A model generated the notes under the pieces. That model was not told the DNA's origin. It made no database searches and saw nothing but the letters and a program-made list of their open reading frames with translations. The translations under genes and the position numbers were made by a program. A DNA stretch of 43,465 bases from a virus. Lineage: Duplodnaviria; Heunggongvirae; Uroviricota; Caudoviricetes. Within the stretch, counting starts at the first letter, position 1. Every line of letters begins with the position of its first letter. The stretch is from IMG/VR virus record IMGVR_UViG_2563366823_000003; one strand, written 5' to 3'. Below are positions 1 through 43,465 of the stretch, one piece after another.

Positions 1-84
1 ATGGCGGGTTATTTGTCCGGGTTATTCCCCCGTTGTAAAATCTCTCCTAAACTTAACGGTACGGCACCACACTTCGGGGATGAA

Positions 85-276
85 ATGTTCGCGCTGGTAC
101 TTTTTGTTTGCTACCTGGATGGCGGTTGTGAAGACATTGTTGTGGATATCTACAACACGGAACAGCAGTGTCTTTATTCTATGAGCGATCAACGGATCCG
201 CCATGGCGGTTGTTTTCCGATTGAGGATTTTATAGATGGTTTCTGGCGACCTGCACAGGAGTACGGTGATTTTTAA
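85..276 (+). CDS. yebW: small conserved host protein, 63 aa (YebW-like); the ORF is also open in frame from nt 1
   Basis: ATG at 85 with GGGGA 4-5 nt upstream; 63-codon ORF convergent with pphA, in the position and of the size recalled for K-12 yebW (not searched). Confidence 0.5.
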   Translation: MFALVLFVCYLDGGCEDIVVDIYNTEQQCLYSMSDQRIRHGGCFPIEDFIDGFWRPAQEYGDF

Positions 277-936
277 TTATTGCAATTGCACAAGAGTCAG
301 TTCTCCCCCAAAGACAGCACCGGTATCAATATAATGCAGGTTGCCAATATCCACGCGATGGCGCAAAGGTGTATGACCAAACCAGAAATGATCAGCACCT
401 GCAATTCCCTGCCCTTTTTGGCGTTCACCTAATCGCGAGCGGCTCCACAAGACCTGATGCAAATCGACGTCCTTTTGCCATTCATAGACATCATCTGGAT
501 AATCGGCATGAGCAATAACATGTTTGCCGGTGCGACTGTGTAATTCAAGAATAAAGGGCAAATGCTGACATTTTTCCAGCGCCGTTTTCGCTTGTTTCTG
601 TTGATTATCTGCCAGCGCAATAAACCAGTCGCCGCCATTTATCAACCATAAAGACATCTGCCGGGATGCCAGCGCATCCATCGCCATCTGTTCATGATTG
701 CCTCTTACCGCACGAACCCAATGTTGTTCCAGTAACTGCAGGCAACGTAAACTTTGCGGCCCACGATCGATAACGTCTCCCACTGAGATAAGTAAATCTC
801 GCCACGGATCAAAACGACAATGCCATAATTTGCGGCGCAACTGCTCAAGACAACCGTGTATATCGCCTGAAAGCCAGATATGTCGCCATTGATGACCCGC
901 AATTCTCTGATAAACGGGCGCAGGCTGTTTCATCAA
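277..936 (-). CDS. pphA: serine/threonine protein phosphatase 1 (calcineurin-like metallophosphoesterase)
   Basis: 218-aa product with GDIHG, GDVIDRG and GNHE metallophosphatase motifs; near-identical to E. coli PphA/PrpA as recalled. Confidence 0.9.
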   Translation of the reverse strand: MMKQPAPVYQRIAGHQWRHIWLSGDIHGCLEQLRRKLWHCRFDPWRDLLISVGDVIDRGPQSLRCLQLLEQHWVRAVRGNHEQMAMDALASRQMSLWLINGGDWFIALADNQQKQAKTALEKCQHLPFILELHSRTGKHVIAHADYPDDVYEWQKDVDLHQVLWSRSRLGERQKGQGIAGADHFWFGHTPLRHRVDIGNLHYIDTGAVFGGELTLVQLQ

Positions 937-1067
937 TATTTTCCTCCCGCGCTAAAGATCACATAATCTTAACAAGAATGTTAAAAAACGCTGGACTCAG
1001 ACAGTAGAGTGTGTGTTATGGTTGACTATAAAGTCAGCGAAGGGAATGCTTCTGGCTTTTAACAGAT

Positions 1068-1098
1068 AAAAAGAGACCGAACACGATTCCTGTTTTCG
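1068..1098. repeat. attL: left copy of the att core (3'-terminal segment of sdsR)
   Basis: aaaaagagaccgaacacgattcctgttttcg repeats 42864-42898 with 2 mismatches and one indel; host-type end ggtctcttttt retained on the minus strand. Confidence 0.7.
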
Positions 1099-1397
1099 TC
1101 AACAAACAACAAAATCTTTTAGAATTAATGTGTTAAATAAATTTATGCTCATCTTTTAATCCCTAACACATACCATTACATATTAATACATTCAATTAGT
1201 TACCATTTTTTTCGAGTTTTTTAGAGAAATTTTCGGGAATATTTCAGATCAATCCATGCATACACAAGCAATTCCTGTATTGAATAATTCCGTAGCAATT
1301 ATGTAAAATCACCTCCGGCTGATTTTCATTCAAACTCGCGCTATCGAACGTCCATCAGCCAGCCGTGGCACGTTCTTGCATACGACGTGCTACGGTT

Positions 1398-1527
1398 TCA
1401 TTTATCTCCGACCGGAAACTTCTTATACAAAGTCGATACGCCAACATCATAGATGATCGCCACCTTCTGGCGAGAAACTCCTGATGCAATTAGTCGTCCA
1501 GCCTGCGCCCATTGCTCCGGCGTGAGA
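1398..1527 (-). pseudogene. pin: 3' remnant of a Pin/Gin/Hin-family DNA invertase (C-terminal HTH only)
   Basis: Minus-strand translation LTPEQWAQAGRLIASGVSRQKVAIIYDVGVSTLYKKFPVGDK* matches the recalled C-terminus of E. coli Pin; no N-terminal resolvase domain upstream. Confidence 0.7.
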
Positions 1528-1610
1528 GTAAGACAGTAAACTGTAGAAAAATCTCATTAAACTTAATATAATAATAAGTTACAGAATTATCTTTACTGAA
1601 TAATAGATAT

Positions 1611-2156
1611 ATGAACATTAGTGAACTTAAAAACTGTATACACTATGAAGTAATAGGTTATAAACGCCCTTTCTCCTGGCGAAAAGCAATTGTTCGCGCA
1701 ATAAAACACAGAAGATTACGTTATTTATTTTGGTGGCGCATAGCAAAATATCTTTTTGATAAAGGCGGATACCGGCGAAAGGTTGCAGGAAAAATAGAAC
1801 GCTTCATTCTTGATAAATACAATGTAACCGTTCCCTTAACTGTAAATATTGGTAAAGGGTTCGACATATCTTATCTCAATGGCGTTGTTATCGGTCACAA
1901 AGTTACAATAGGTGAAAATTGTTCAATTAAGCCTGGAGTAACTATTGGACTTCGCGGTGAATTTAATGATATGGATATTGTCATAGGAAATAATGTAACC
2001 ATCGGCTGTAACGCCACCATCCTTGGTGGCAAAGTGCATATAGGGAATAATGTAAAAATAGGAGCTCATGCATTAGTACTGCATGACATTCCTGATGACT
2101 CCACATTCATTACTAAATTTCACTCTGAAATTATTTATAACTCATCTCACACATAA
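1611..2156 (+). CDS. hexapeptide-repeat (left-handed beta-helix) acyl/acetyltransferase; low-GC cargo gene
   Basis: 181 aa with repeated [LIV]G-x-x-x-x hexapeptide units (VIGHKVTIGENCSIKPGVTIG, VIGNNVTIGCNATILGGKVHIGNNVKIG); AT-rich relative to flanking phage genes. Confidence 0.75.
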   Translation: MNISELKNCIHYEVIGYKRPFSWRKAIVRAIKHRRLRYLFWWRIAKYLFDKGGYRRKVAGKIERFILDKYNVTVPLTVNIGKGFDISYLNGVVIGHKVTIGENCSIKPGVTIGLRGEFNDMDIVIGNNVTIGCNATILGGKVHIGNNVKIGAHALVLHDIPDDSTFITKFHSEIIYNSSHT

Positions 2157-2238
2157 TTCCGTTTAATCACAGCTCTGGCCATACGATATCCGGGGCTGTA
2201 TTTATATCAATCCGACTCACTAATACCCGGTATTTTTT

Positions 2239-2739
2239 CTAGGAAGATAGCATCGAGACTTCCTCATCAGTTGCCATTTCAAAATTAACAGCATCCTGCA
2301 GAATTGTTATGTTATCAGTCGCTTCCTGGATTAATCTTGCCTTTTTCTCTTCCGCCTCCCGGATCCGGAACAGTTTTTCTGCTTCTGCATCTTTCACCCA
2401 AGCTGTGCCGTTCCACTTCTGAAACTCCCCATCCGGCGACAACCAGGTGACATTTTCCGGTAATGGGCCAAGTTCAGAAATAAATAACGCGTCCCCTGAT
2501 GCCACGTCATAAACCGTTTTACCCCGATGGTCTTCAACGAGATGCCACGATGCCTCATCACTGTTGAAAACAGCCACAAAGCCAGCCGGAATATCTGGCG
2601 GTGCAATATCGGTACTGTTTGCAGGCAGACCTGTATGAGGCGGAATATATGCGTCACCTTCACCAATAAATTCATTAGTTCCGGCCAGCAGGTTATAAAT
2701 TTTTATGGTCCGTGCTTGTTCACTCATTCTGAATGCCAT
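2239..2739 (-). CDS. tfa: tail fibre assembly protein (lambda Tfa family)
   Basis: N-terminus [57 protein letters not shown] closely matches recalled lambda Tfa; ATG overlaps the stop of the upstream fibre gene. Confidence 0.85.
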
Positions 2740-3836
2740 TATGCGAGCCTCACAATATAGTTAAATGCGATGTTTTTGACGGTGTTTTCCGCGTTACCAG
2801 CAGCGTTAACGGTGATGGTGTGTCCATGTGAACCAATCGCAACAGAGTGCGTATGTGCACCAATAGCGACAGTATGTGTATGCGCCCCAGCACTTGCTGC
2901 AGTACCTGATACTGAGTGGGTATGCGCGCCAGCAGAATTCGTTGCACCTAAGTGAGTTTGAGCAGAGTTCGACGAAGCTACTCTACCGGAGCTAACGTTA
3001 GCATTATCCCCCTGAGATATCGGATGCGTATGTGCACCTGCTGAAGCTGCTGTTCCGCTAACGCTATGGGTATGCGCACCAGTGTTATTCGTAGATTTAG
3101 TTCCATAATCAAACGATGATGTGTTTTTTGTCCCTAAATCTGTATTGGAAGCACTGGCGCTGTGGGTGTGCGATTTAATGCCGTCCTGTTCCTGGCTAAG
3201 AACATCACGTCCACTTGCAGGCTTACCTTTGATTGTCCAGCCACGCATATCAGGGATCACGCCTGACGGATAAGCGGCTGCAAGTTTCGGGTATGCAGAC
3301 TTGTCAAAAGTCTGTCCCTGCATCAGAGCATAACCAGATGGAACTGTATCTGATGGCCACGGGATCGGGGCACCTACAGGAAAGGTCGAATTATTTTCCA
3401 AACCAAGATATTTAAGGACATCAGCAACAGAGCTTTTTGCCAAAATATCTCGCCCAACCTGTGTCAGGTCAGCCAAATTAGCGGTATCTTGATTGGTAAA
3501 ATACGGTAATTTGTTTTCGGATGCTGAAAGATTAGCAAGTGCGGTAAGTATGGCATTAATTCTCTGATAGTTCTTATCTAATGCAGACGACATTTTTGCG
3601 ATAAATCCGGCCTGATCGCCATCGTCCTGTACATCCAGTCCACTTTCATTTGCTGTATATTGTGCCATTGCAGATGCAATAAAGCTGGCCTGCCGAATAA
3701 CCTTATTGACTTGCGCACTGGATGCTTTCCCTGCTGTAAATCCGGATAAAAGCGCAGGTAATGCTTCCCATTCCTCCTGCGACATAACATTGGCATTCCG
3801 ATCAGTTGCAAACGCTTTAAAGTCATTTTTCGCCAT
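2739..3836 (-). CDS. side tail fibre protein with His-rich C-terminal repeats (GAHTHS x5)
   Basis: 365-aa ORF immediately upstream of tfa; repeated [15 protein letters not shown] units; start placed at ATG 3836 overlapping the upstream stop (TGATG). Confidence 0.8.
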
Positions 3837-4516
3837 CAGAGTAATACTCCCCATGCCCCTACATCAAAACCACTGATAAATTCGTTATCCATATCAAAAC
3901 CAAAAAATTTTGAGCCTTCCGATGGAGTTTCCACCGAAGGTGTTTCAATGCCACCCGCCCACACCCCGGCGGCTTTTACTGTGAGATATCCCTGTTTAAT
4001 TGCAGCAATTAACTCACGCGATACATCTGAAATATCAGTATCAGGAAAGACCCAGACCGATATCGTCATGTCCTGGTTATCGACAATCTGCATTCGCAGC
4101 CCGGATCCTGCTGTCGCCGCGTCAAGAATTGCTGGAAGCGAATCATTCCGTCCGTCCCAGTTATTAATCGCAATCTTCGCTTTAAGGATGGCACGATAAG
4201 TTTCATCGCTGAGGTACATGTATCCGGAATCAGGATCGTATGGTCCCTGCCATACACCCTGATCATATCCAAGCCCGTCGGTATCCCAGCTGAAATAGAC
4301 ACCTGAGATAGGCTGGCTGACAACACGGCTACGTCCGATCCACAATCCCAGAATGTCAAGTTGCACACCAACCGCAGAGTCAATATCAAATGCAGTAATC
4401 AGCCCTCTGGTGGCAGCCGCAACATCAATAAGCGGCCGGGTCATCAGATCAACATGTGCAAGAAATTTAGGTTTGGTGGCGTGATAGTTTGTGATTAGTT
4501 CGGTGTATTTGCTCAT
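3836..4516 (-). CDS. putative tail/baseplate protein (Mu gp48-like position, YmfQ-like)
   Basis: 226-aa ORF between the baseplate J-like gene and the tail fibre gene, overlapping both; family assignment from recall only. Confidence 0.5.
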
Positions 4517-5712
4517 GACTCCACCGTTATAACGATATTTTCCGGGGTACAGGACGCAGATTCGTTATATCTGATATCAATGTTTGATGACGACAAAGCC
4601 CCCGGGGATTTCCCAATCGTCAGTTCCTGAATATCGTAATAGCGTGCATTCCCGCCACTCGCCACGCCAAGATTCGCCGGTGAGTAAATGCGACTTAAAA
4701 GGACTGAATCACCAATCGTCAGACTATTGATATAGTCGGAAATAGCCTGCTGGATCTGCTGCCCTATCTGTGAGGTATAACCCGTAAAAACTTTTAATTT
4801 AATCCGGGCATAAACAGGCACATCACTGGAACGCGAGAATTTGATTACATGGGGATTGCCGTATTTATCCGGAACCGTAACGGATGTTGTACCGTGAGTG
4901 GCTGTCCCCTGGCCTTTATTCCCTCTGATAGCCTGAGCAATATCCGTCACATCACCGCCATCCACAATTACAGCAACAGAGTGTGGCGGTAACCCGTTAC
5001 CGTCCTCCGAACCAGTATCGTTTTCATAGAGTTTGTGGCGGGTTACACCGGTAACATTAGAAACAGCACCATCCAGTGCTTCAAATGGGGTTATTGATGG
5101 CAACGCAACACTTTGCGACTGGCGGATACGTAACTCCGCGTCAGTTTCTGCCGGAGTGCCCACAGTAGCCGCAGCAGGATTAGTTACCGAAACCCAGCCA
5201 CGGGTTGGCGTATTAATTTCAGTGATAGTTCCAGCCAGCGCCGCCACTGCACCACTGACGGAACATGTTGCGGTCACCATCACTGTACCATCCACGCCGA
5301 CCACCACTGAAGCAGGCAAACGCCATATCACATTATTACTGTCTTTCACGCTGCCATTAATGATGGTTGTTCCGGCAGTTCCTGTAAGAAGCAAATCAAC
5401 CGTAGAATTCGTCGCGCCTTTACGTGAAATACCATTTATTTTCACGTTACTGGTCAGTGCGGCCCCATAGCCGGTTGCTGGTGAAAAACAGTTGTAGACA
5501 GTTATCGCCATATTATTGGCATCATGAATCGCCAGCGCTATCAGAGCCACCATCTGACCGTCTTTACTGTCCGGTTCGAGGTAGGCATCACTACCATAAA
5601 TCTGCTGAAAATAGCTAATCAGGGTGCTGAGTATCGTCTGATAATCAGGCGCACTGATCCCCTCCGCGGTTACCTTTGCAGATAAACCGAGAGAATCAAG
5701 GTTCAGAGCCAT
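4513..5712 (-). CDS. baseplate J-like protein (Mu gp47 / P2 gpJ family)
   Basis: 399-aa ORF in conserved baseplate gene order; size and position typical of baseplate J. Confidence 0.6.
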   Translation of the reverse strand: MALNLDSLGLSAKVTAEGISAPDYQTILSTLISYFQQIYGSDAYLEPDSKDGQMVALIALAIHDANNMAITVYNCFSPATGYGAALTSNVKINGISRKGATNSTVDLLLTGTAGTTIINGSVKDSNNVIWRLPASVVVGVDGTVMVTATCSVSGAVAALAGTITEINTPTRGWVSVTNPAAATVGTPAETDAELRIRQSQSVALPSITPFEALDGAVSNVTGVTRHKLYENDTGSEDGNGLPPHSVAVIVDGGDVTDIAQAIRGNKGQGTATHGTTSVTVPDKYGNPHVIKFSRSSDVPVYARIKLKVFTGYTSQIGQQIQQAISDYINSLTIGDSVLLSRIYSPANLGVASGGNARYYDIQELTIGKSPGALSSSNIDIRYNESASCTPENIVITVES

Positions 5713-6065
5713 TACGCCTCCGATGTAACAGTCGTTATTCCATAGAGAGTGTCGATTTCAGCGGAAAACATGACACGTCGGGTCGTGGTATCCACCGTCG
5801 TATTGAAAGAGAGGATTGATTTAACGCCCCGCGTTTCGAGGATGCGCTTACGGATCGCCAGGTTGTAGGTTTCCGGCTTCTGCTTACCGAGCACGGACTG
5901 GATCCACGGAGTCCCTTCGGTGGTGTCGAGAAACCATTGCCCATACCACAATTCGAATCGCGTTTTCACAGCCTGTGCTACGGCCTCAGGCGAGTTAATC
6001 AGCCAGGTGTCATCACCGCTGCCAAAGGTGTAATCGCCATCGGCGTCTTCACGTCTGTATCGCAT
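5712..6065 (-). CDS. putative baseplate protein (Mu gp46-like position)
   Basis: 117-aa ORF translationally coupled to flanking baseplate genes. Confidence 0.45.
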   Translation of the reverse strand: MRYRREDADGDYTFGSGDDTWLINSPEAVAQAVKTRFELWYGQWFLDTTEGTPWIQSVLGKQKPETYNLAIRKRILETRGVKSILSFNTTVDTTTRRVMFSAEIDTLYGITTVTSEA

Positions 6066-6817
6066 CAGTTTACCCCATCGGTATTGCTTCCACCGCGCTG
6101 AACACCACCATGAGTGTGCGTATCATCGATTGGCTTGCCGTTAGCCTTCACGCTCCCCAAAAACTCAACAGCACCAGTGATTTTTGAAGCCACACCAGAA
6201 ACCACAGACCCCACCATGCCCCCCAACCAGGTTAACAGGCCATGAATGGTTACTTTCTCAGAAAAATCAGCCAGAGGGGCAACCACATCAAGACCACCCG
6301 GAGCGACAATTTTAATTTTCCCGGTATCAGGATTAAGCTCAAAATAGGTGCTGCCATCGTCACTACGCAACTGTGTGGCACTGGTATTAATACCGCTAAT
6401 CTTCCTAGCCTGCGACTGGGGACCGACAATACAAAACGCATCCGATAAATCATGCATTCTGTCATCAACAGGCTCCTGTATCCCGCCGTTCTGCCACCAG
6501 AAATCAATACAACGATCGGCAAAAACGACAAGACACTCATCCCCAGCTTTTACCGGAAAAGTCAACGTACAGCCTCCGCCGCGCGGGAATACCACTGGCA
6601 CATCCACCAGCAATGGGTAATTTTTGGTAATGCGGTTACCGTAGTTATCCTTTTCAACCGAACGGATAGCTGGCTGCACAACCGCCGTCACCGCGTCAGG
6701 ATCGAATGACTGAATAATGCCAGGCAAGGCGACGCGGATCTGGTTCTTTGTTGTTTCCCGCTCGGACTTGAATGTTTCGGCAAGGTCACCGCTACGAGTC
6801 TGGTCTGATATGGCCAT
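6065..6817 (-). CDS. putative baseplate spike/hub protein (Mu gp45-like position)
   Basis: ORF with AGGAG 8 nt upstream of ATG 6817; the track start at 6850 is less likely. Confidence 0.45.
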   Translation of the reverse strand: MAISDQTRSGDLAETFKSERETTKNQIRVALPGIIQSFDPDAVTAVVQPAIRSVEKDNYGNRITKNYPLLVDVPVVFPRGGGCTLTFPVKAGDECLVVFADRCIDFWWQNGGIQEPVDDRMHDLSDAFCIVGPQSQARKISGINTSATQLRSDDGSTYFELNPDTGKIKIVAPGGLDVVAPLADFSEKVTIHGLLTWLGGMVGSVVSGVASKITGAVEFLGSVKANGKPIDDTHTHGGVQRGGSNTDGVN

Positions 6818-6830
6818 TTGATAAACTCCT

Positions 6831-6858
6831 GAAAACAAAAAACCCGCCAAGTGGCGGG
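6831..6858 (-). terminator. rho-independent terminator closing the inserted moron
   Basis: Perfect 7-bp stem acccgcc/ggcgggt with 4-nt loop, followed on the minus strand by TTTTTTGTTTT. Confidence 0.6.
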
Positions 6859-6878
6859 TCTACAGGAACAACTCTAAG

Positions 6879-7050
6879 TTTATTTTTTCTGTTTAAAATT
6901 GTCCAACTCAGGTTCTTTAACGCTTTCTGTCATGTAATCCAATCCATCAAAAGGTACTTCAAGCATTATACTGCTTTCATAATCAGCCATGGATTGCTCT
7001 GCTTGCGTTGGCTTACTTTGCTGTGAGTTGTCATTATTTGATGTTGTCAT
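6879..7050 (-). CDS. small acidic hypothetical protein (56 aa), distal gene of the moron
   Basis: ORF MTTSNNDNSQQSKPTQAEQSMADYESSIMLEVPFDGLDYMTESVKEPELDNFKQKK, below the track size cutoff; starts 3 nt after the upstream stop and is followed by the terminator. Confidence 0.35.
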
Positions 7051-7053
7051 CAA

Positions 7054-7608
7054 CTATGCCTTATTTATCAAAAGAAAAGTAACCGATAATATGAAAAAAC
7101 CGAAAGATAACGCAATTCCTTCAAAAAGATAACGAGCATAAACTGCCTTTTCTTTATGAAGACTTTCGATCAATTCAACAGCTTTACCATACTGAAACAT
7201 ATGGTATCTAAGCGTTTTAATTTTATCACCGTAAAGTAAAAAATCATGCTCTTCTTTTCGCTTATGAATAGGCATTTTTGGTATATCTTTCAGTCCCCAA
7301 GTACGCCATAGGAAAAAAAAGCACATAACAATACAAACAAAGCACAGATATGCACAAAGTATAGATAATGTTAAAAACCAATTACTCTTTAGCCCACTTT
7401 TGAAATCAACAGTCCCAAATACAGCCAGTAGAGCAGAGGTTTCTACAGCTAAAATAGCAAGAAGGTAGTTAACTTTGTCCTCAAGACGACGATATGTTGA
7501 TTTTGCTTCCTCATATCTATCTTTATAATATGACGAAATAAAATCAGCGCCTATAGTCTCAATTGCCTTTTGTTCTTCTGTTGTATCTATTGGCGAACGC
7601 TTGCTCAT
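7054..7608 (-). CDS. hypothetical integral membrane protein (2-3 predicted TM helices); low-GC moron
   Basis: 184 aa with hydrophobic stretches LLAILAVETSALLAVFG, FLTLSILCAYLCFVCIVMCFFFLW and IALSFGFFILSVTFLLI; markedly AT-rich compared with flanking baseplate genes. Confidence 0.6.
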   Translation of the reverse strand: MSKRSPIDTTEEQKAIETIGADFISSYYKDRYEEAKSTYRRLEDKVNYLLAILAVETSALLAVFGTVDFKSGLKSNWFLTLSILCAYLCFVCIVMCFFFLWRTWGLKDIPKMPIHKRKEEHDFLLYGDKIKTLRYHMFQYGKAVELIESLHKEKAVYARYLFEGIALSFGFFILSVTFLLINKA

Positions 7609-7615
7609 TTCTTAA

Positions 7616-7963
7616 TCAACCAACAACTTTCTTACACGGGAAAGAGCCAATAATTTTCGGAGCATCCATGCTGTTCTGCAACAACTGGACGTTCAGGAAA
7701 CGCGTTTTAGTGCCCGGTCGATGGATATACTCGAACCCATAATTGTTGCCATCTTTGGCAGGCATCAGCTCCATTTTGATCTGCATGCCTGTACCGTCTT
7801 TACCCAACATTTTTACTTTTTGGGACGTTACTGTTTCGCCATTGATTTTAAATAATGAGTCAGGGATCGCATCCATACGAAAGTTGCCGCATTGCATCGT
7901 TATGGTGTTTGCACTTACACCAACAGACACTAACGCCAGCAATGAAAATATCCATCGTTTCAT
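7616..7963 (-). CDS. hypothetical secreted/periplasmic protein (115 aa) with Sec signal peptide
   Basis: Start at ATG 7963 (GAGAGGA upstream) gives MKRWIFSLLALVSVGVSA signal peptide; two Cys in the mature part; the track's longer N-terminus is unlikely. Confidence 0.55.
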   Translation of the reverse strand: MKRWIFSLLALVSVGVSANTITMQCGNFRMDAIPDSLFKINGETVTSQKVKMLGKDGTGMQIKMELMPAKDGNNYGFEYIHRPGTKTRFLNVQLLQNSMDAPKIIGSFPCKKVVG

Positions 7964-7965
7964 TT

Positions 7966-9030
7966 CTATAATCCTCTCTGCAAAGCAGTGCTGGATGGCA
8001 TATCCTGCGCACCGCGCGCTTCGCACATCATATCCATGTACCACGCCTGGCCCCTTGTGTCGCCAGTGTACATAATCCCGCGCACAATATAAACGCCATC
8101 CGTTGCGATGCTGGCAGGCTGCGATGTGGTGCCGCTTAGCGTGATATTTCCATCCGTGTTCTGGTCGGTGATCTGACCACCAGCCATCGCAATATCGTTG
8201 TTCGACAACGCGGTACGATACACTGAAACCTGATCCAGCTGAATGAGTCCGTTAACCCGGATGTTCGGATTAATAAGCGCGCGGACGTTTACGCCGTTAC
8301 CGATAGTCTGCTGCGGCATGCCAATAAGCCCGGTAGCGCTGTTGAGCACAATCGCTTCATGAACATATTCGTTATTCGCCACCATCTGGCGCTGGCCGTC
8401 CACGAATTGCCATGTTGCGCCACATTGCCCGGCTACGTTATCCATTAGATGCCGCGTCATGCCAAAGAGTACCCGCCCCCGGGGGAATACAGTAGCAGGC
8501 ATTTCAGGCGTCAGGCCTTCGGTCGCGCCTTTGGCTTCGAAGTCTTTCATCAGCGCACGGCTCACATCAGCGACCGTGTAACCGGCAGCCAGCGTCTGTG
8601 AGGTTATACTGGTGGCAAAAGCCAGATCTGTATCGGCTGCCTGAATCAGGACGTAGGTATCAACCGGACTGTCTTTTCCTGTGACCGAGTAGCGAATTTC
8701 ACCGCTGAAAATCAGTCCGTAGTTGCGGCCATCACTCTGGCCCACGTCCGCCGCGTCAACTTCCCGCACTGTCCCGACGTCGCTTGCCGACACCTCCGGC
8801 GCGATACCGTCGTAACCCGCAATCAGACGCACTTTCGAAAACTCCTGCCCGGTGATTCGGTTCACAGTATCTGCCGAGAGGTTATAAATTTTGATAGTCC
8901 CTACCCGGGACGCGCTGCTGATGTTGAACCAGTCGATCGTAAAGGTGACTTTAAAATCACTTAGCTCAATTCCCTGACCGTTCCCGTCCACAAGCTGCAG
9001 CTCGAAATGTCTCATCCAGTTCTGTGACAT
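7966..9030 (-). CDS. putative baseplate hub protein (Mu gp44-like position)
   Basis: ORF in the tail module; ATG 9030 preceded by GGAG, immediately after the upstream stop. Confidence 0.5.
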   Translation of the reverse strand: MSQNWMRHFELQLVDGNGQGIELSDFKVTFTIDWFNISSASRVGTIKIYNLSADTVNRITGQEFSKVRLIAGYDGIAPEVSASDVGTVREVDAADVGQSDGRNYGLIFSGEIRYSVTGKDSPVDTYVLIQAADTDLAFATSITSQTLAAGYTVADVSRALMKDFEAKGATEGLTPEMPATVFPRGRVLFGMTRHLMDNVAGQCGATWQFVDGQRQMVANNEYVHEAIVLNSATGLIGMPQQTIGNGVNVRALINPNIRVNGLIQLDQVSVYRTALSNNDIAMAGGQITDQNTDGNITLSGTTSQPASIATDGVYIVRGIMYTGDTRGQAWYMDMMCEARGAQDMPSSTALQRGL

Positions 9031-27379: not shown

Positions 27380-27535
27380 TTACTCCTCAGGTTCGTAAGC
27401 TGTGAAGACAGCGACCTCCGTCTGGCCGGTTCGGATTCGTACCTCGCAGAGGTCTTTCCTCGTTACCAGTGCCGTCACTATGACGGTTAAACAGATGACG
27501 ATCAGGGCGATTAACATCGCCTTTTGCTGCTTCAT
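27380..27535 (-). CDS. hokD: Hok/Gef-family membrane toxin (type I toxin-antitoxin)
   Basis: 51 aa MKQQKAMLIALIVICLTVIVTALVTRKDLCEVRIRTGQTEVAVFTAYEPEE matches recalled HokD/RelF; hairpin-rich 3' UTR and in-frame upstream extension. Confidence 0.8.
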   Translation of the reverse strand: MKQQKAMLIALIVICLTVIVTALVTRKDLCEVRIRTGQTEVAVFTAYEPEE

Positions 27536-27677
27536 AGCCTGCTTCTCCTTGCCTTTCGGCACGTAAGAGGCTAACCTACATGTGCAAAGCATGAAATTGG
27601 CCTCAGATTAATGTTAAGCGTCTTGCCGGACGCGTAATGTTAACTGGGGCTTTTCTCTATCTGCCTTTGGTGTTCGT

Positions 27678-27717
27678 GCCCGAGGCAGATAGCCTCAAGC
27701 ACCCGCCGTGATTCTAC
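27678..27717. repeat. left copy of a ~40-bp imperfect direct repeat flanking the AT-rich cargo island
   Basis: gcccgaggcagatagcctcaagcacccgccgtgattctac versus gcctgagacagacaacctcaagcacccgcagcaattctac at 29698-29737, ~82% identity. Confidence 0.6.
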
Positions 27718-36171: not shown

Positions 36172-36571
36172 ATTCATTTCCTTACTGGTTGTGTGAGAAC
36201 TCCAGTAAAGATACCACCAAAGCCCGGAGGTGGTGAAATAAAACCGGGCACAACACGAAGGCGCATTTCTGGTATCCATAAAGAGTCGGTCTTGTCTGTT
36301 AAATTTAAATGGTGGGAGTGCGCCTCCGGTTGTAAATAACGACATTGCTTTGTGTAGTCTTTGGCGGCATCAGTTCTACTCCGTGGCTGCCCTGCCGCCC
36401 CTTTTTAAAGTGAATTTTGTGATGCGGTGAATGCGGCTAAGCGCACGCGGAACAGTTAAAAGCATCAGTGTTATGGGTGGATTATCCGGCGTTAATTGTT
36501 AACTGGTTAACGTCACCTGGAGGCACCAGGCACCGCATCGACAAAATTCATTTGTAAAAATGGAGATAATT

Positions 36572-40913: not shown

Positions 40914-41120
40914 ATGACAAAAATTATGAGATATGACGATGTTAAACCATGTCCGTTTTGTGGTTGTCCATCTGTTACGGTGAAAGCAATTTCAGGATAT
41001 TACCGGGCAAAATGCAACGGATGCGAATCCCGAACTGGCTATGGTGGAAGTGAAAAAGAAGCGCTCGAAAGATGGAATAAACGAACCACTGAAAATATTA
41101 ATGGAGGCGTTCATGTATAA
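40914..41120 (+). CDS. ralR: restriction alleviation protein Lar/RalR
   Basis: MTKIMRYDDVKPCPFCGCPSVTVKAISGYYRAKCNGCESRTGYGGSEKEALERWNKRT matches recalled Lar. Confidence 0.7.
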   Translation: MTKIMRYDDVKPCPFCGCPSVTVKAISGYYRAKCNGCESRTGYGGSEKEALERWNKRTTENINGGVHV

Positions 41121-41301
41121 AATTACTGCTACAATTGAAAAGGAAGGTGGCACTCCTACTAACTGGACAAGATATTCAAAATCTAAACTAACGAAATCAG
41201 AATGCGAAAAAATGCTCTCAGGGAAAAAAGAAGCAGGCGTTTCCAGAGAGCAGAAAGTAAAACTGATAAATTTTAATTGCGAGAAACTTCTGTCATCGTG
41301 A
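41113..41301 (+). CDS. small hypothetical protein (62 aa)
   Basis: ATG 41113 overlapping the lar stop; the track start upstream is non-ATG. Confidence 0.4.
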   Translation: MYKITATIEKEGGTPTNWTRYSKSKLTKSECEKMLSGKKEAGVSREQKVKLINFNCEKLLSS

Positions 41302-41407: not shown

Positions 41408-41689
41408 ATGAATCTTGTGACACTCAAAACTTGGGGAAGACTCAGATATCCGGATAACCCACCATCAATATCAACACTGAGACGATGGGCAAGGAATGGA
41501 AACATTTATCCTGCACCTGAACTACACGGGAGGAGTTACAGGGTGGTTCCGGAGGCTTTCTATATCAACCCAAATAAGGTTGATACCGATATAACACACC
41601 ACCAGCCTAATGGGCGACAAGGGAGAGACAGTCCGTTAATGGAGAAGTTAAAACATGCAGCGGAAAAAATACGATCCCAATTTGCCTAG
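41408..41689 (+). CDS. xis: excisionase (Xis-like)
   Basis: Small basic ORF overlapping the integrase start; AAGAGG 8 nt upstream of ATG 41408. Confidence 0.6.
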   Translation: MNLVTLKTWGRLRYPDNPPSISTLRRWARNGNIYPAPELHGRSYRVVPEAFYINPNKVDTDITHHQPNGRQGRDSPLMEKLKHAAEKIRSQFA

Positions 41690-42731
41690 AAACTTAACAT
41701 ATCGAAGGAGAGACAAAGCATATTACTGGCGCAACCCTCTCACGAAAGAAGAATTTACACTAGGTAAAATTTCAAGAAGAGATGCAGTAGCGCAGGCAAT
41801 TGAAGCAAATCATTATATATACAAAAACTACTCTCCTGCTGCCTTAATTGAAAAGCTGAAAGGGTTCGACTCATTTACTATGGCAGACTGGATTGAACGT
41901 TACAAAACGATTCTTATAAGGAGAAAAGTGTCCAGAAATACTTATAAAATTCGGGTAAATCAACTGGAGACAATAAAAGAAAAATTGGGAGGGATTTTAC
42001 TGACAGAAATAACCACTCGCCATATTGCTGAGTTTCTTGATTTGTGGATTGAAGGAGGGAAAAACACGATGGCAGGATCAATGCGTTCTGTGTTATCTGA
42101 TATGTTCCGCGAGGCCATTGTTGAAGGACGTATATCTCAAAATCCAGTAACGCCAACAAGAGCACCGAAAATAGTAGTTACAAGAGAACGACTGAAACTA
42201 AAGACATACAACTGCATCAGGGAGGCAGCAGATCAACTTCCGGCATGGTTCCCATTAGCTATGGATTTAGCCCTTGTAACAGGACAACGTCGCGAAGACA
42301 TAACGAATATGCGGTTCAGTGATATTTATGATGATCGTCTCCACATCAGGCAAATTAAGACAGGAATGATGATTGCTATCCCCCTGTCACTCAGACTTCC
42401 TGTCGCTGGTCTACGGCTTGGTACAGTAGTTGAACGCTGCCGCCTGGTAAGCCGGGGAGATTATCTAATCAGTGCCGGGATTAGAAAAAACAGCCCTGAC
42501 GGCAGCATTCACCCGGATGGCCTGACAAAAAAATTTGTCGCAGCCAGAAAATTAACAGGTATCCAGTTCAGTGAAAACCCACCAACTTTTCACGAGATCA
42601 GAAGTCTGGCTGGACGATTGTACAAAGAAACATGTGGAGAAGAATTTGCTCAGCGTCTACTTGGCCACACATCGGAGAAGACAACAAAAATGTATCTTGA
42701 TGAGAGAGAAAAAACGTACTTACTGCTCTGA
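41655..42731 (+). CDS. int: tyrosine integrase (lambda Int family)
   Basis: 358 aa; collinear with recalled lambda Int ([40 protein letters not shown] catalytic region); GGAGAAG upstream. Confidence 0.9.
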
Positions 42732-42863
42732 TTTTAACGTAAATGGATTGTTAAATGCATTTTGGTTGTGATATAACCAAAAAAGACCGGAATACAGAAA
42801 TTCGAGTAAATTTCGGGGAATTTCGGGGGAGACGTTTGCAACTGATTGATTTTAAATACAATT

Positions 42864-42898
42864 AAAAAAAGACCGAATACGATTCCTGTATTCGGTCC
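42864..42898. repeat. attR: right copy of the att core inside the sdsR terminator stem
   Basis: aaaaaaagaccgaatacgattcctgtattcggtcc matches 1068-1098. Confidence 0.7.
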
Positions 42899-42966
42899 AG
42901 GGAAATGGCTCTTGGGAGAGAGCCGTGCGCTAAAAGTTGGCATTAATGCAGGCTTAGTTGCCTTGC
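42864..42966 (-). ncRNA. sdsR: SdsR (RyeB) small RNA; antisense RyeA/SraC overlaps on the plus strand
   Basis: Minus-strand gcaaggcaactaagcctgcattaatgccaacttttagcgcacggctctctcccaagagccatttccctggaccgaatacaggaatcgtattcggtcttttttt matches recalled SdsR incl. terminator. Confidence 0.8.
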
Positions 42967-43123
42967 TCTTTAAGAATAGATGACGACGCCAGGTTTTCCA
43001 GTTTGCGTGCAAAATGGTCAATAAAAAGCGTGGTGGTCATCAGCTTAAATGTTAAAAACCGCCCGTTCTGGTGAAAGAACTGAGGCGGTTTTTTATTGGA
43101 AATCAAAAGGCTATTTTAGGTAA

Positions 43124-43465
43124 TTAACAGAGTTTTTCAGCTCGCTCTATAAACGGTGCCAGACTCATTTTTTCGCCGGGATTGTTAGGATCATCAATCT
43201 GAATCACCGAAATGGGTTGGGCTTTAGTCTTCCCACTGGCAACTTCCTTTTGTGCGATATCGTTTAAAGGATACTGCACGAGGGTACTTGGGTTAATGAC
43301 ATACAAAGCATTACCCGGTCGGCAAGTCAGCATCACCTCTTCGCGATTAAACGCCCATTTGTCTTTACCCACTTCAAAACGGCTGACGGTAATCACCTGC
43401 GGTGCCGCCAGCGCAGCTGCAGAACTGGTGAGTAACAGAAACGCCAGAATACTTTTTCTCATCAT
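43124..43465 (-). CDS. yebY: periplasmic protein YebY (DUF2511)
   Basis: 113 aa with signal peptide [22 protein letters not shown]; near-identical to recalled K-12 YebY; start codon at the window end. Confidence 0.85.

Follow-up and report, generated by a model that had tools for sequence, protein, structure and literature searches.

A tail-fibre locus at one end of an Escherichia coli prophage raises the question of how a gene for an acyltransferase-like protein came to stand where related phages carry a host-range switch, and of what it may do there. The locus lies in a stretch of 43,465 nucleotides (IMG/VR virus record IMGVR_UViG_2563366823_000003; Caudoviricetes), which is called the window below. 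Near its left end, a remnant of a Gin/Pin/Cin-type serine invertase (the scar) is followed by the acyltransferase-like gene, by tfa and by a tail fibre gene (Table 1). In relatives with a switch of the Mu, P1 and e14 type, the invertase flips a segment with two alternative fibre tips and their assembly proteins. The reading that we favour, with a probability of about 0.6, is that the window holds a frozen, imported fibre cassette together with a cargo gene whose product, as a best guess, would modify some part of the envelope connected with the linked fibre's receptor, and so exclude related phages.

The original prediction, made from the letters of the window, held that about 43 C-terminal codons of a Pin-family invertase survive at 1398-1527, and this is borne out for 42 codons and a stop, at 1398-1526; both this segment and the acyltransferase-like gene had been placed correctly to within 1 base. 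The translation of the scar (1401-1526, minus strand; stop at 1398-1400), LTPEQWAQAGRLIASGVSRQKVAIIYDVGVSTLYKKFPVGDK, scores 45.5 bits (E 8e-12) with Pfam HTH_7 of resolvases, whose cut-off is 23.8, and also matches PHROG 125, 'DNA invertase'. Its identity is 97.6% with residues 141-182 of a full-length Pin/Gin-like invertase pseudogene found at the same chromosomal site in strain CE0021a (locus L007), and 66% with the helix-turn-helix of Cin from the P1-like phage JL22. Homology of the window to full-length invertases stops at about 1526; the frame of the scar has no ATG, the frame upstream is closed by stop codons, and RefSeq describes the same stretch in strain RM8082 as a pseudogene, 'incomplete, missing N-terminus'. 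Only the residues equivalent to 141-182 are left, and the catalytic domain with its serine nucleophile, the promoter and the adjacent crossover site are all missing.

With two full-length invertases as queries, tblastn returned no second invertase in the 43-kb window, the scar being the only match, and the 26-bp consensus of gix/pix/cix/hix-like crossover sites gave no match in the whole window with up to three mismatches, or in its first 8 kb with up to four. The negative result is meaningful because the same pattern recovers known sites in relatives: both sites in the sister phage vB_EcoM-611R5 (611R5 below) and in JL22, and a single site each in the e14-like locus L008 and in the P1-like loci L003, L013 and L060. 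Inverted-repeat searches of 900-4200 produced only pairs of a size expected by chance. A custom Tfa profile found one tfa only in window 1-8000, and no fibre-like open reading frame (ORF) is present in 1099-2240. The late operon ends, distally, in the order fibre, tfa, invertase, as do the Mu G segment with Gin, the P1 C segment with Cin and the e14 P segment with Pin, from which the window differs in having no catalytic domain, no crossover sites and no alternative fibre or tfa. In contrast, 611R5 shows the classic layout of these segments, with two 26-bp sites and, after tfa, a convergent tfa' and fibre' fragment and then the invertase, in the slot taken by the acyltransferase-like gene in the window. 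The fibre switch is therefore dead here, and the host range of the prophage fixed. Invertases of the Gin, Pin, Cin and Hin type are interchangeable; with neither cis site left, however, the locus could not be flipped even by an invertase that another prophage provides. The loss of host-range switching had been proposed at the outset, together with a search for residual gix/pix-like sites and the thought that an intact invertase elsewhere, with functional crossover sites, might contradict it; no residual site was found within the limits given above, neither element is present in the 43-kb window, and 611R5 retains the tfa'/fibre' module and the two sites.

The original prediction also had the truncated invertase and the acyltransferase-like gene replace the alternative fibre module. 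As a statement of position this stands, by comparison with 611R5; as a single local event it does not, since the junction is common to lambdoid prophages. Lambdoid prophages that carry stfR, lom and gpJ and are inserted at the prfC/dinI site and at the lambda attachment site share window 1326-2931 at 95.7-96.7% identity; there the cassette begins at window 1303-1326, and the junction between scar, 16-bp filler and promoter-like site is the same. For the block of about 1326-3602, the identity to lambdoid prophages is 96-99%. Of 5,426 complete E. coli genomes, at least 64 have the junction of scar and acyltransferase-like gene, and 91 have the gene itself, as 65 chromosomal and 27 plasmid copies, the latter 87% identical and mostly on plasmids of P1-like size (94-119 kb). 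P1-like plasmids and phage 613R2 share the segment 1537/1543-3380 at 82-84% identity; nothing of the invertase is left in them, and their homology opens with the promoter-like site, at 1537-1543. The sister prophage L007 of strain CE0021a shares the attachment site, and its identity to the window is 96% over 1-1526 and again from 3603 on; the equivalents of 1526 and 3603 enclose the remainder of the invertase, another tfa and another fibre tip. The right boundary of the cassette is a graded mosaic within the fibre gene, at 3600-3675, of a form typical of homologous recombination. The right edge of the homology at about 3380 was considered as a crossover site and rejected; in a P1-like plasmid, cix lies 2 kb from the cassette edge.

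The presence of the same junction at other attachment sites argues that the cassette recombined in whole and that the truncation is older than this prophage. The invertase was thus truncated once, in an ancestor, and the block spread afterwards as a cassette and was acquired here by recombination. A pre-assembled unit of fibre tip, tfa, acyltransferase-like gene and scar circulates among lambdoid and myovirus prophages; it entered here through homology to the 3' end of the invertase gene and to the fibre gene's conserved 5' part. The block is common to many E. coli prophages and hence ordinary, and it belongs among the known mosaic host-range cassettes with decayed invertases and cargo. Such decay beside cargo recurs independently: Cin residues 1-79 are kept next to a homologue of the acyltransferase-like gene in L060, an N-terminally truncated invertase adjoins a ClpP-like gene in L008, and a C-terminally truncated invertase adjoins a 281-residue ORF in 611R5.

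Some details of these loci deserve mention in their own right. In 611R5 (L096; 3408-4608) only about the first 92 residues of the invertase ORF align before it diverges, and the 281-residue ORF comes next, on the opposite strand; the phage retains both crossover sites and the alternative fibre module. In L008 (E. coli 124611; 6074-7324) the gene for the ClpP-like protease lies between the truncated invertase and a tfa' fragment, with one pix-like site. L003, on the P1-like plasmid pTA13-2, carries fragments of a group II intron at 5236-5505 (Rfam RF02001 and RF01998), within a stretch of about 1 kb, unannotated, that runs from the holin gene to the acyltransferase-like gene, where P1 has lydC, cin, S' and U'.

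The acyltransferase-like gene had been described as a low-GC hexapeptide-repeat gene at 1611-2156, convergent to tfa, and each part of this description agrees with our results: the product matches Pfam Hexapep in two stretches (E 1e-13, 50.6 bits, cut-off 27), its GC content is 35.9%, and the gene facing it is a tfa by its match to Caudo_TAP. Residues 1-180 of the product align with positions 4-184 of the 185 of the PHROG 2154 profile (E 1.2e-77). The GC content of the prophage is 48.1% and that of the 84 bp upstream of the gene 20%. The gene is oriented opposite to the late operon, and no terminator was predicted between it and tfa. Both hexamers of the promoter-like site are kept in lambdoid (L002, L006) and P1-like (L003) copies, and this site forms the left edge of the acyltransferase unit, at which the homology with the P1-like and 613R2 copies begins. 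The gene is a self-contained cargo gene (a 'moron'), and because of its low GC content, its own promoter-like site and its orientation it is probably expressed in the lysogen.

What the protein does is less easily read from its family. RefSeq names it 'serine acetyltransferase'. In E. coli CysE (numbering of that protein), Asp143 and His158 are catalytic, and Asp157, Arg192 and His193 bind serine. In alignments made with HMMER against solved serine acetyltransferases and with MAFFT together with CysE and WcaB, the catalytic pair falls on Thr73 and Tyr88 of the window protein, and Asp157, Arg192 and His193 fall on Ser87, a Met and an Asp. The catalytic Asp/His pair being exchanged, any chemistry would be non-canonical, or there may be none. 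A possible cell-surface or metabolite acetyltransferase had been put forward in the original prediction; canonical acetyltransferase catalysis is, judged from the residues, doubtful. The subclade of the window protein (52-100% identity, including a protein of Hafnia phage yong2) is under purifying selection, with a ratio of non-synonymous to synonymous substitution rates (dN/dS) of 0.07-0.16, and the protein thus appears to be functional and still in use. An AlphaFold2 model of the monomer, built on an alignment of 33 sequences, had a mean predicted local distance difference test score (pLDDT) of 73.5, with 49-72 per 10-residue block in the repeat region; with this model, mediocre in its repeats, Foldseek found no significant match in the PDB, the best being CysE (E 0.45). 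In the hexapeptide-repeat superfamily the beta-helix forms trimers whose active site lies between the subunits.

The linkage of the family to tail fibres was assessed in 86 evaluable loci drawn from viral contigs, annotated phages and genomes. In 66 of the 86, a Tfa ORF in convergent orientation starts between -30 and +56 bp from the stop codon of the acyltransferase-like gene, and in three further loci a fibre gene is directly convergent to it. Whether the phage is P1-like, P2-like, lambdoid or of another kind, the linkage is found at protein identities as low as 35%; the tail-to-tail arrangement with tfa at 35-52% identity is seen in Hafnia phage yong2, Citrobacter phage phiNP and the P1-like JL22 and Ro157c2, and linkage to tfa or a fibre gene is found in the annotated phage 613R2 as well. 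The 'sacF' region of JL22 is a close parallel in layout: its homologue (37% identical by tblastn) stands tail-to-tail with a lambda-type tfa and stf, as in the window. JL22 differs from the window in having an intact cin and its two cix sites, the homologue lying next to S' and U' within the invertible segment, between U' and tfa; the JL22 protein, unlike that of the window, also keeps a Glu/His pair. Because the homologue of JL22 stands alongside an intact switch, gain of the acyltransferase-like gene and loss of the invertase are separable. The PHROG 2154 family, which is specific to phages, is a regular companion of tfa and not a substitute for the alternative fibre. A scan of species-representative genomes returned few family members in Enterobacterales, followed by generic CysE/EpsC-like proteins, and no member of the window subclade. 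As a side observation, distant hexapeptide 'serine acetyltransferase' homologues (26% identity) adjoin the receptor-binding tail genes of Streptococcus thermophilus 987-group phages, and the association with fibres may extend beyond Enterobacterales.

Several other explanations of the locus have to be weighed against these data. Taken alone, the window would most simply be read as a recent, local event in which the acyltransferase-like gene inserted in the invertible region of this very prophage and broke its invertase, and the truncations beside cargo in L060, L008 and 611R5 show that separate cases do exist; we nonetheless hold such an event to be highly improbable, in view of the identical arrangement of scar, 16-bp filler and promoter at prfC/dinI and at the lambda attachment site, at 96-97% identity, and of the second break in homology to the sister prophage, which falls inside the fibre gene and indicates that fibre tip and tfa arrived together with the acyltransferase-like gene. 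Hardest of all to credit is a genuine CysE-like serine O-acetyltransferase that would give the lysogen extra capacity for cysteine synthesis. The RefSeq product name speaks for it, as do the best sequence matches in the PDB, which are serine acetyltransferases (E 2e-13, over the beta-helix only), and matches to the NCBIfam cysE and EpsC models. These matches, however, stay below the curated cut-offs (77.9 against 210.65 bits for TIGR01172 cysE, 52.8 against 397 for PRK11132, 85.5 against 150 for EpsC); Pfam gives Hexapep-type domains only and no SATase_N, in a protein of 181 residues compared with 273 in CysE; and all five residues named above are exchanged, Asp143, Asp157, His158, Arg192 and His193 for Thr, Ser, Tyr, Met and Asp. 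CysE and the polysaccharide acetyltransferases WcaB and EpsC do belong to the same branch of the beta-helix superfamily as the window protein, with a hexapeptide-repeat helix (predicted in the window protein) after a short helical region, and are its best matches among families and PDB entries; yet it remains below every cut-off (for WcaB, 60.3 bits against 196 and 59.3 against 194.65), without SATase_N, the Asp/His pair or the serine-binding Arg-His.

The exchange of the catalytic pair also suggests that the window subclade could consist of pseudoenzymes, beta-helix proteins that transfer nothing and act by binding, for example by sequestering coenzyme A (CoA) or acetyl-CoA, by mixing into or blocking beta-helix trimers of the host, or by binding envelope precursors. 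Both positions are replaced jointly, by Thr, Lys or Val together with Tyr, in all 31 distinct members of the subclade; an Asp or Glu with His is kept in each of the 55 distinct family members that are at most 50% identical to the window protein, and in CysE and WcaB as well, and the strong purifying selection implies a protein still used. Some beta-helix N-acyltransferases, on the other hand, function without a histidine base, so that loss of the pair is no proof of lost catalysis, and the conserved Tyr88 could serve as base; we consider the pseudoenzyme unlikely. An anti-phage defence role or another function away from the cell surface, the position next to tfa reflecting merely a general cargo slot, is less likely still. 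It draws on the other cargo found in this slot (the ClpP-like gene of L008, the 281-residue ORF of 611R5) and on hicAB beside the homologue in phiNP; against it, there is no match to the PADLOC defence models, a full-text search on serine acetyltransferase and anti-phage defence gave a single title, which does not bear on the PHROG 2154 family, and a tail-to-tail linkage that persists to 35% identity across P1-like, P2-like, lambdoid and other phages exceeds what a shared slot would lead one to expect.

The favoured reading is thus that of the imported cassette with a cargo gene acting on the envelope. In our best guess, the cargo protein would modify a part of the envelope that belongs with the receptor for the linked fibre, and related phages would thereby be excluded; this role is proposed because of the analogy to phage-borne surface-modifying enzymes and because of the polysaccharide-acetyltransferase relatives of the protein. 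The nearest functional precedent for it is NeuO, a hexapeptide-repeat cargo protein of the E. coli K1 prophage CUS-3, which is a capsule O-acetyltransferase of demonstrated activity and modifies the surface polysaccharide recognised by the phage. NeuO differs from the window protein in that it falls in another branch, of the maltose/galactoside acetyltransferase type, and no NeuO structure is among the 54 PDB matches to the window protein at E up to 1e-3.

Several points weigh against this reading. The joint replacement of the pair in all members of the subclade, just described, is one, and the promoter at 1544-1572 is predicted by a consensus match only. Lambda-type fibres work without an acyltransferase-like gene, and fibre function therefore does not require one. 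The ClpP-like gene and the 281-residue ORF show that the tail-fibre operon ends in a general cargo slot, and therefore the linkage to tfa could stem from location and not from function. No family of the PADLOC 2.0 defence models matched the protein at E up to 0.01, and full-text literature searches brought up no functional study of the family; it is mentioned in passing for JL22, phiNP and S. thermophilus 987-group phages. The description of JL22 itself says that it is not known why the gene is present (PMC9603915).

A bolder and tentative proposal, which we would not rate above the pseudoenzyme, takes the PHROG 2154 family as a functional partner of the fibre/Tfa module that would alter the receptor or the maturation of the fibre, the window subclade being a re-engineered enzyme or pseudoenzyme that uses Tyr and represents a new mechanism of receptor masking or exclusion. 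If this is true, the mechanism would be passed on together with host-range cassettes, in lambdoid, P1-like and P2-like phages as well as in others.

Table 1. Features at the left end of the prophage, with positions in the window.
Feature	Position	Strand	Remarks
Left attachment-site repeat	1067-1098		Imperfect copy of the sdsR 3' end (terminator); partner at 42863-42894
AT-rich non-coding prophage arm	1099-1397		34% GC; no ORF of 60 residues or more; 96% identical in L007
Exchangeable cassette	about 1326-3602		Scar, acyltransferase-like gene, tfa and receptor-binding part of the fibre; shared with other prophages
Gin/Pin/Cin-type serine invertase scar	1398-1526	-	42 C-terminal codons (helix-turn-helix) and stop; HTH_7, PHROG 125
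16-bp filler, AGTAAGACAGTAAACT	1527-1542		Between scar and acyltransferase unit; the same or almost the same in the cassettes of lambdoid prophages
Promoter-like site, TAGAAA-17 nt-TATAAT	1544-1572	+	Best consensus match in 1050-2800 (10 of 12 positions)
Hexapeptide-repeat (predicted left-handed beta-helix) acyltransferase-like protein	1611-2156	+	181 residues; Pfam Hexapep, PHROG 2154
tfa (lambda Tfa type)	2167-2739	-	Caudo_TAP, E 2e-22; amber codon at 2239-2241 (W167*)
Tail fibre gene (open frame)	2739-3854	-	371 residues; Pfam Collar and Phage_fiber repeats

The setting of the locus was established by blastn against E. coli K-12. The window is E. coli chromosome, in which 1-1098 matches the yebW/pphA side and 42863-43465 the sdsR/yebY side of one K-12 region; the K-12 matches of the two ends overlap by 32 bp, an imperfect repeat of the 3' end of sdsR, and the longest exact stretch common to both copies of the repeat is ACGATTCCTGT. 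A crossover-site look-alike at 1089, TTCCTGTTTTCG, was rejected, as it belongs to the sdsR terminator and attachment-site repeat. Rfam places SdsR and RyeA at 42860-43004, and an ORF of 358 residues beside the sdsR end of the prophage (41655-42731) is taken to be the integrase. Because the attachment-site repeat, SdsR/RyeA and this ORF mark the right end, the prophage can be assigned to about 1099-42862 (some 41.8 kb), with the fibre/acyltransferase locus at its far left end. It is a temperate myovirus inserted at the 3' end of sdsR, adjoining pphA. Its structural genes are 97% identical to those of induced E. coli myoviruses such as 611R5, and more distantly related to those of Salmonella phage SEN34 and Yersinia phage YP3. 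The minus-strand neighbours are a baseplate J/gp47 gene, a DUF2612 gene, the fibre gene and tfa. Within the left arm, 1099-1325 is particular to this prophage lineage, and 1326-1397 is already part of the exchangeable cassette. The 5' part of K-12 ryeA (annotated start equivalent to window 1030) lies to the left of the prophage and is aimed inward at the acyltransferase-like gene, the SdsR/RyeA core lying to the right; ryeA may have been uncoupled from its promoter by integration, and host transcription may run into the end of the prophage. The prophage also encodes RalA, the antitoxin RNA of RalR (41119-41297), a sok antitoxin RNA (27530-27704) and DicF (36349-36400), small RNAs that are usual in the lambdoid prophages Rac and Qin and are found here with a myovirus-type tail.

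The tfa gene of the window is interrupted: its open frame, 2239-2739, specifies 166 residues as compared with 190 in relatives, the conserved C-terminal 24 residues being removed. The amber codon arises from a single base, position 2240, which is T here and C in the close relatives L001, L014 and L015. Fibre assembly may be impaired as a result, or the T may be a sequencing error; the acyltransferase-like gene beside it is intact. The fibre gene is of two origins: its N-terminal portion, about 3603-3854, is the lineage's own, and the remainder, 2739 to about 3602, comes from the imported cassette, the homology to L007 resuming at 3603. Within it, 3393-3418 (TTTTCCAAACC..., coding for KYLGLENN) resembles the left half of the gix-like site of 611R5, at an equivalent position of the fibre (coding for ALENLGLGE); with six mismatches to the full 26-bp consensus, this half-site may be a relic or due to chance.

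The 'serine acetyltransferase' label carried by a widespread prophage gene is unsupported and unfit for metabolic inference. The locus indicates, moreover, that host-range modules pass between unrelated temperate phages as ready-made cassettes, with invertase remnants and the conserved 5' ends of fibre genes as handles for recombination, and that cargo insertions at fibre loci are repeatedly accompanied by a decayed invertase gene alongside. The point of interest is that a predicted beta-helix subclade maintained by selection, without the catalytic pair, stays tied to tfa across very different phages.

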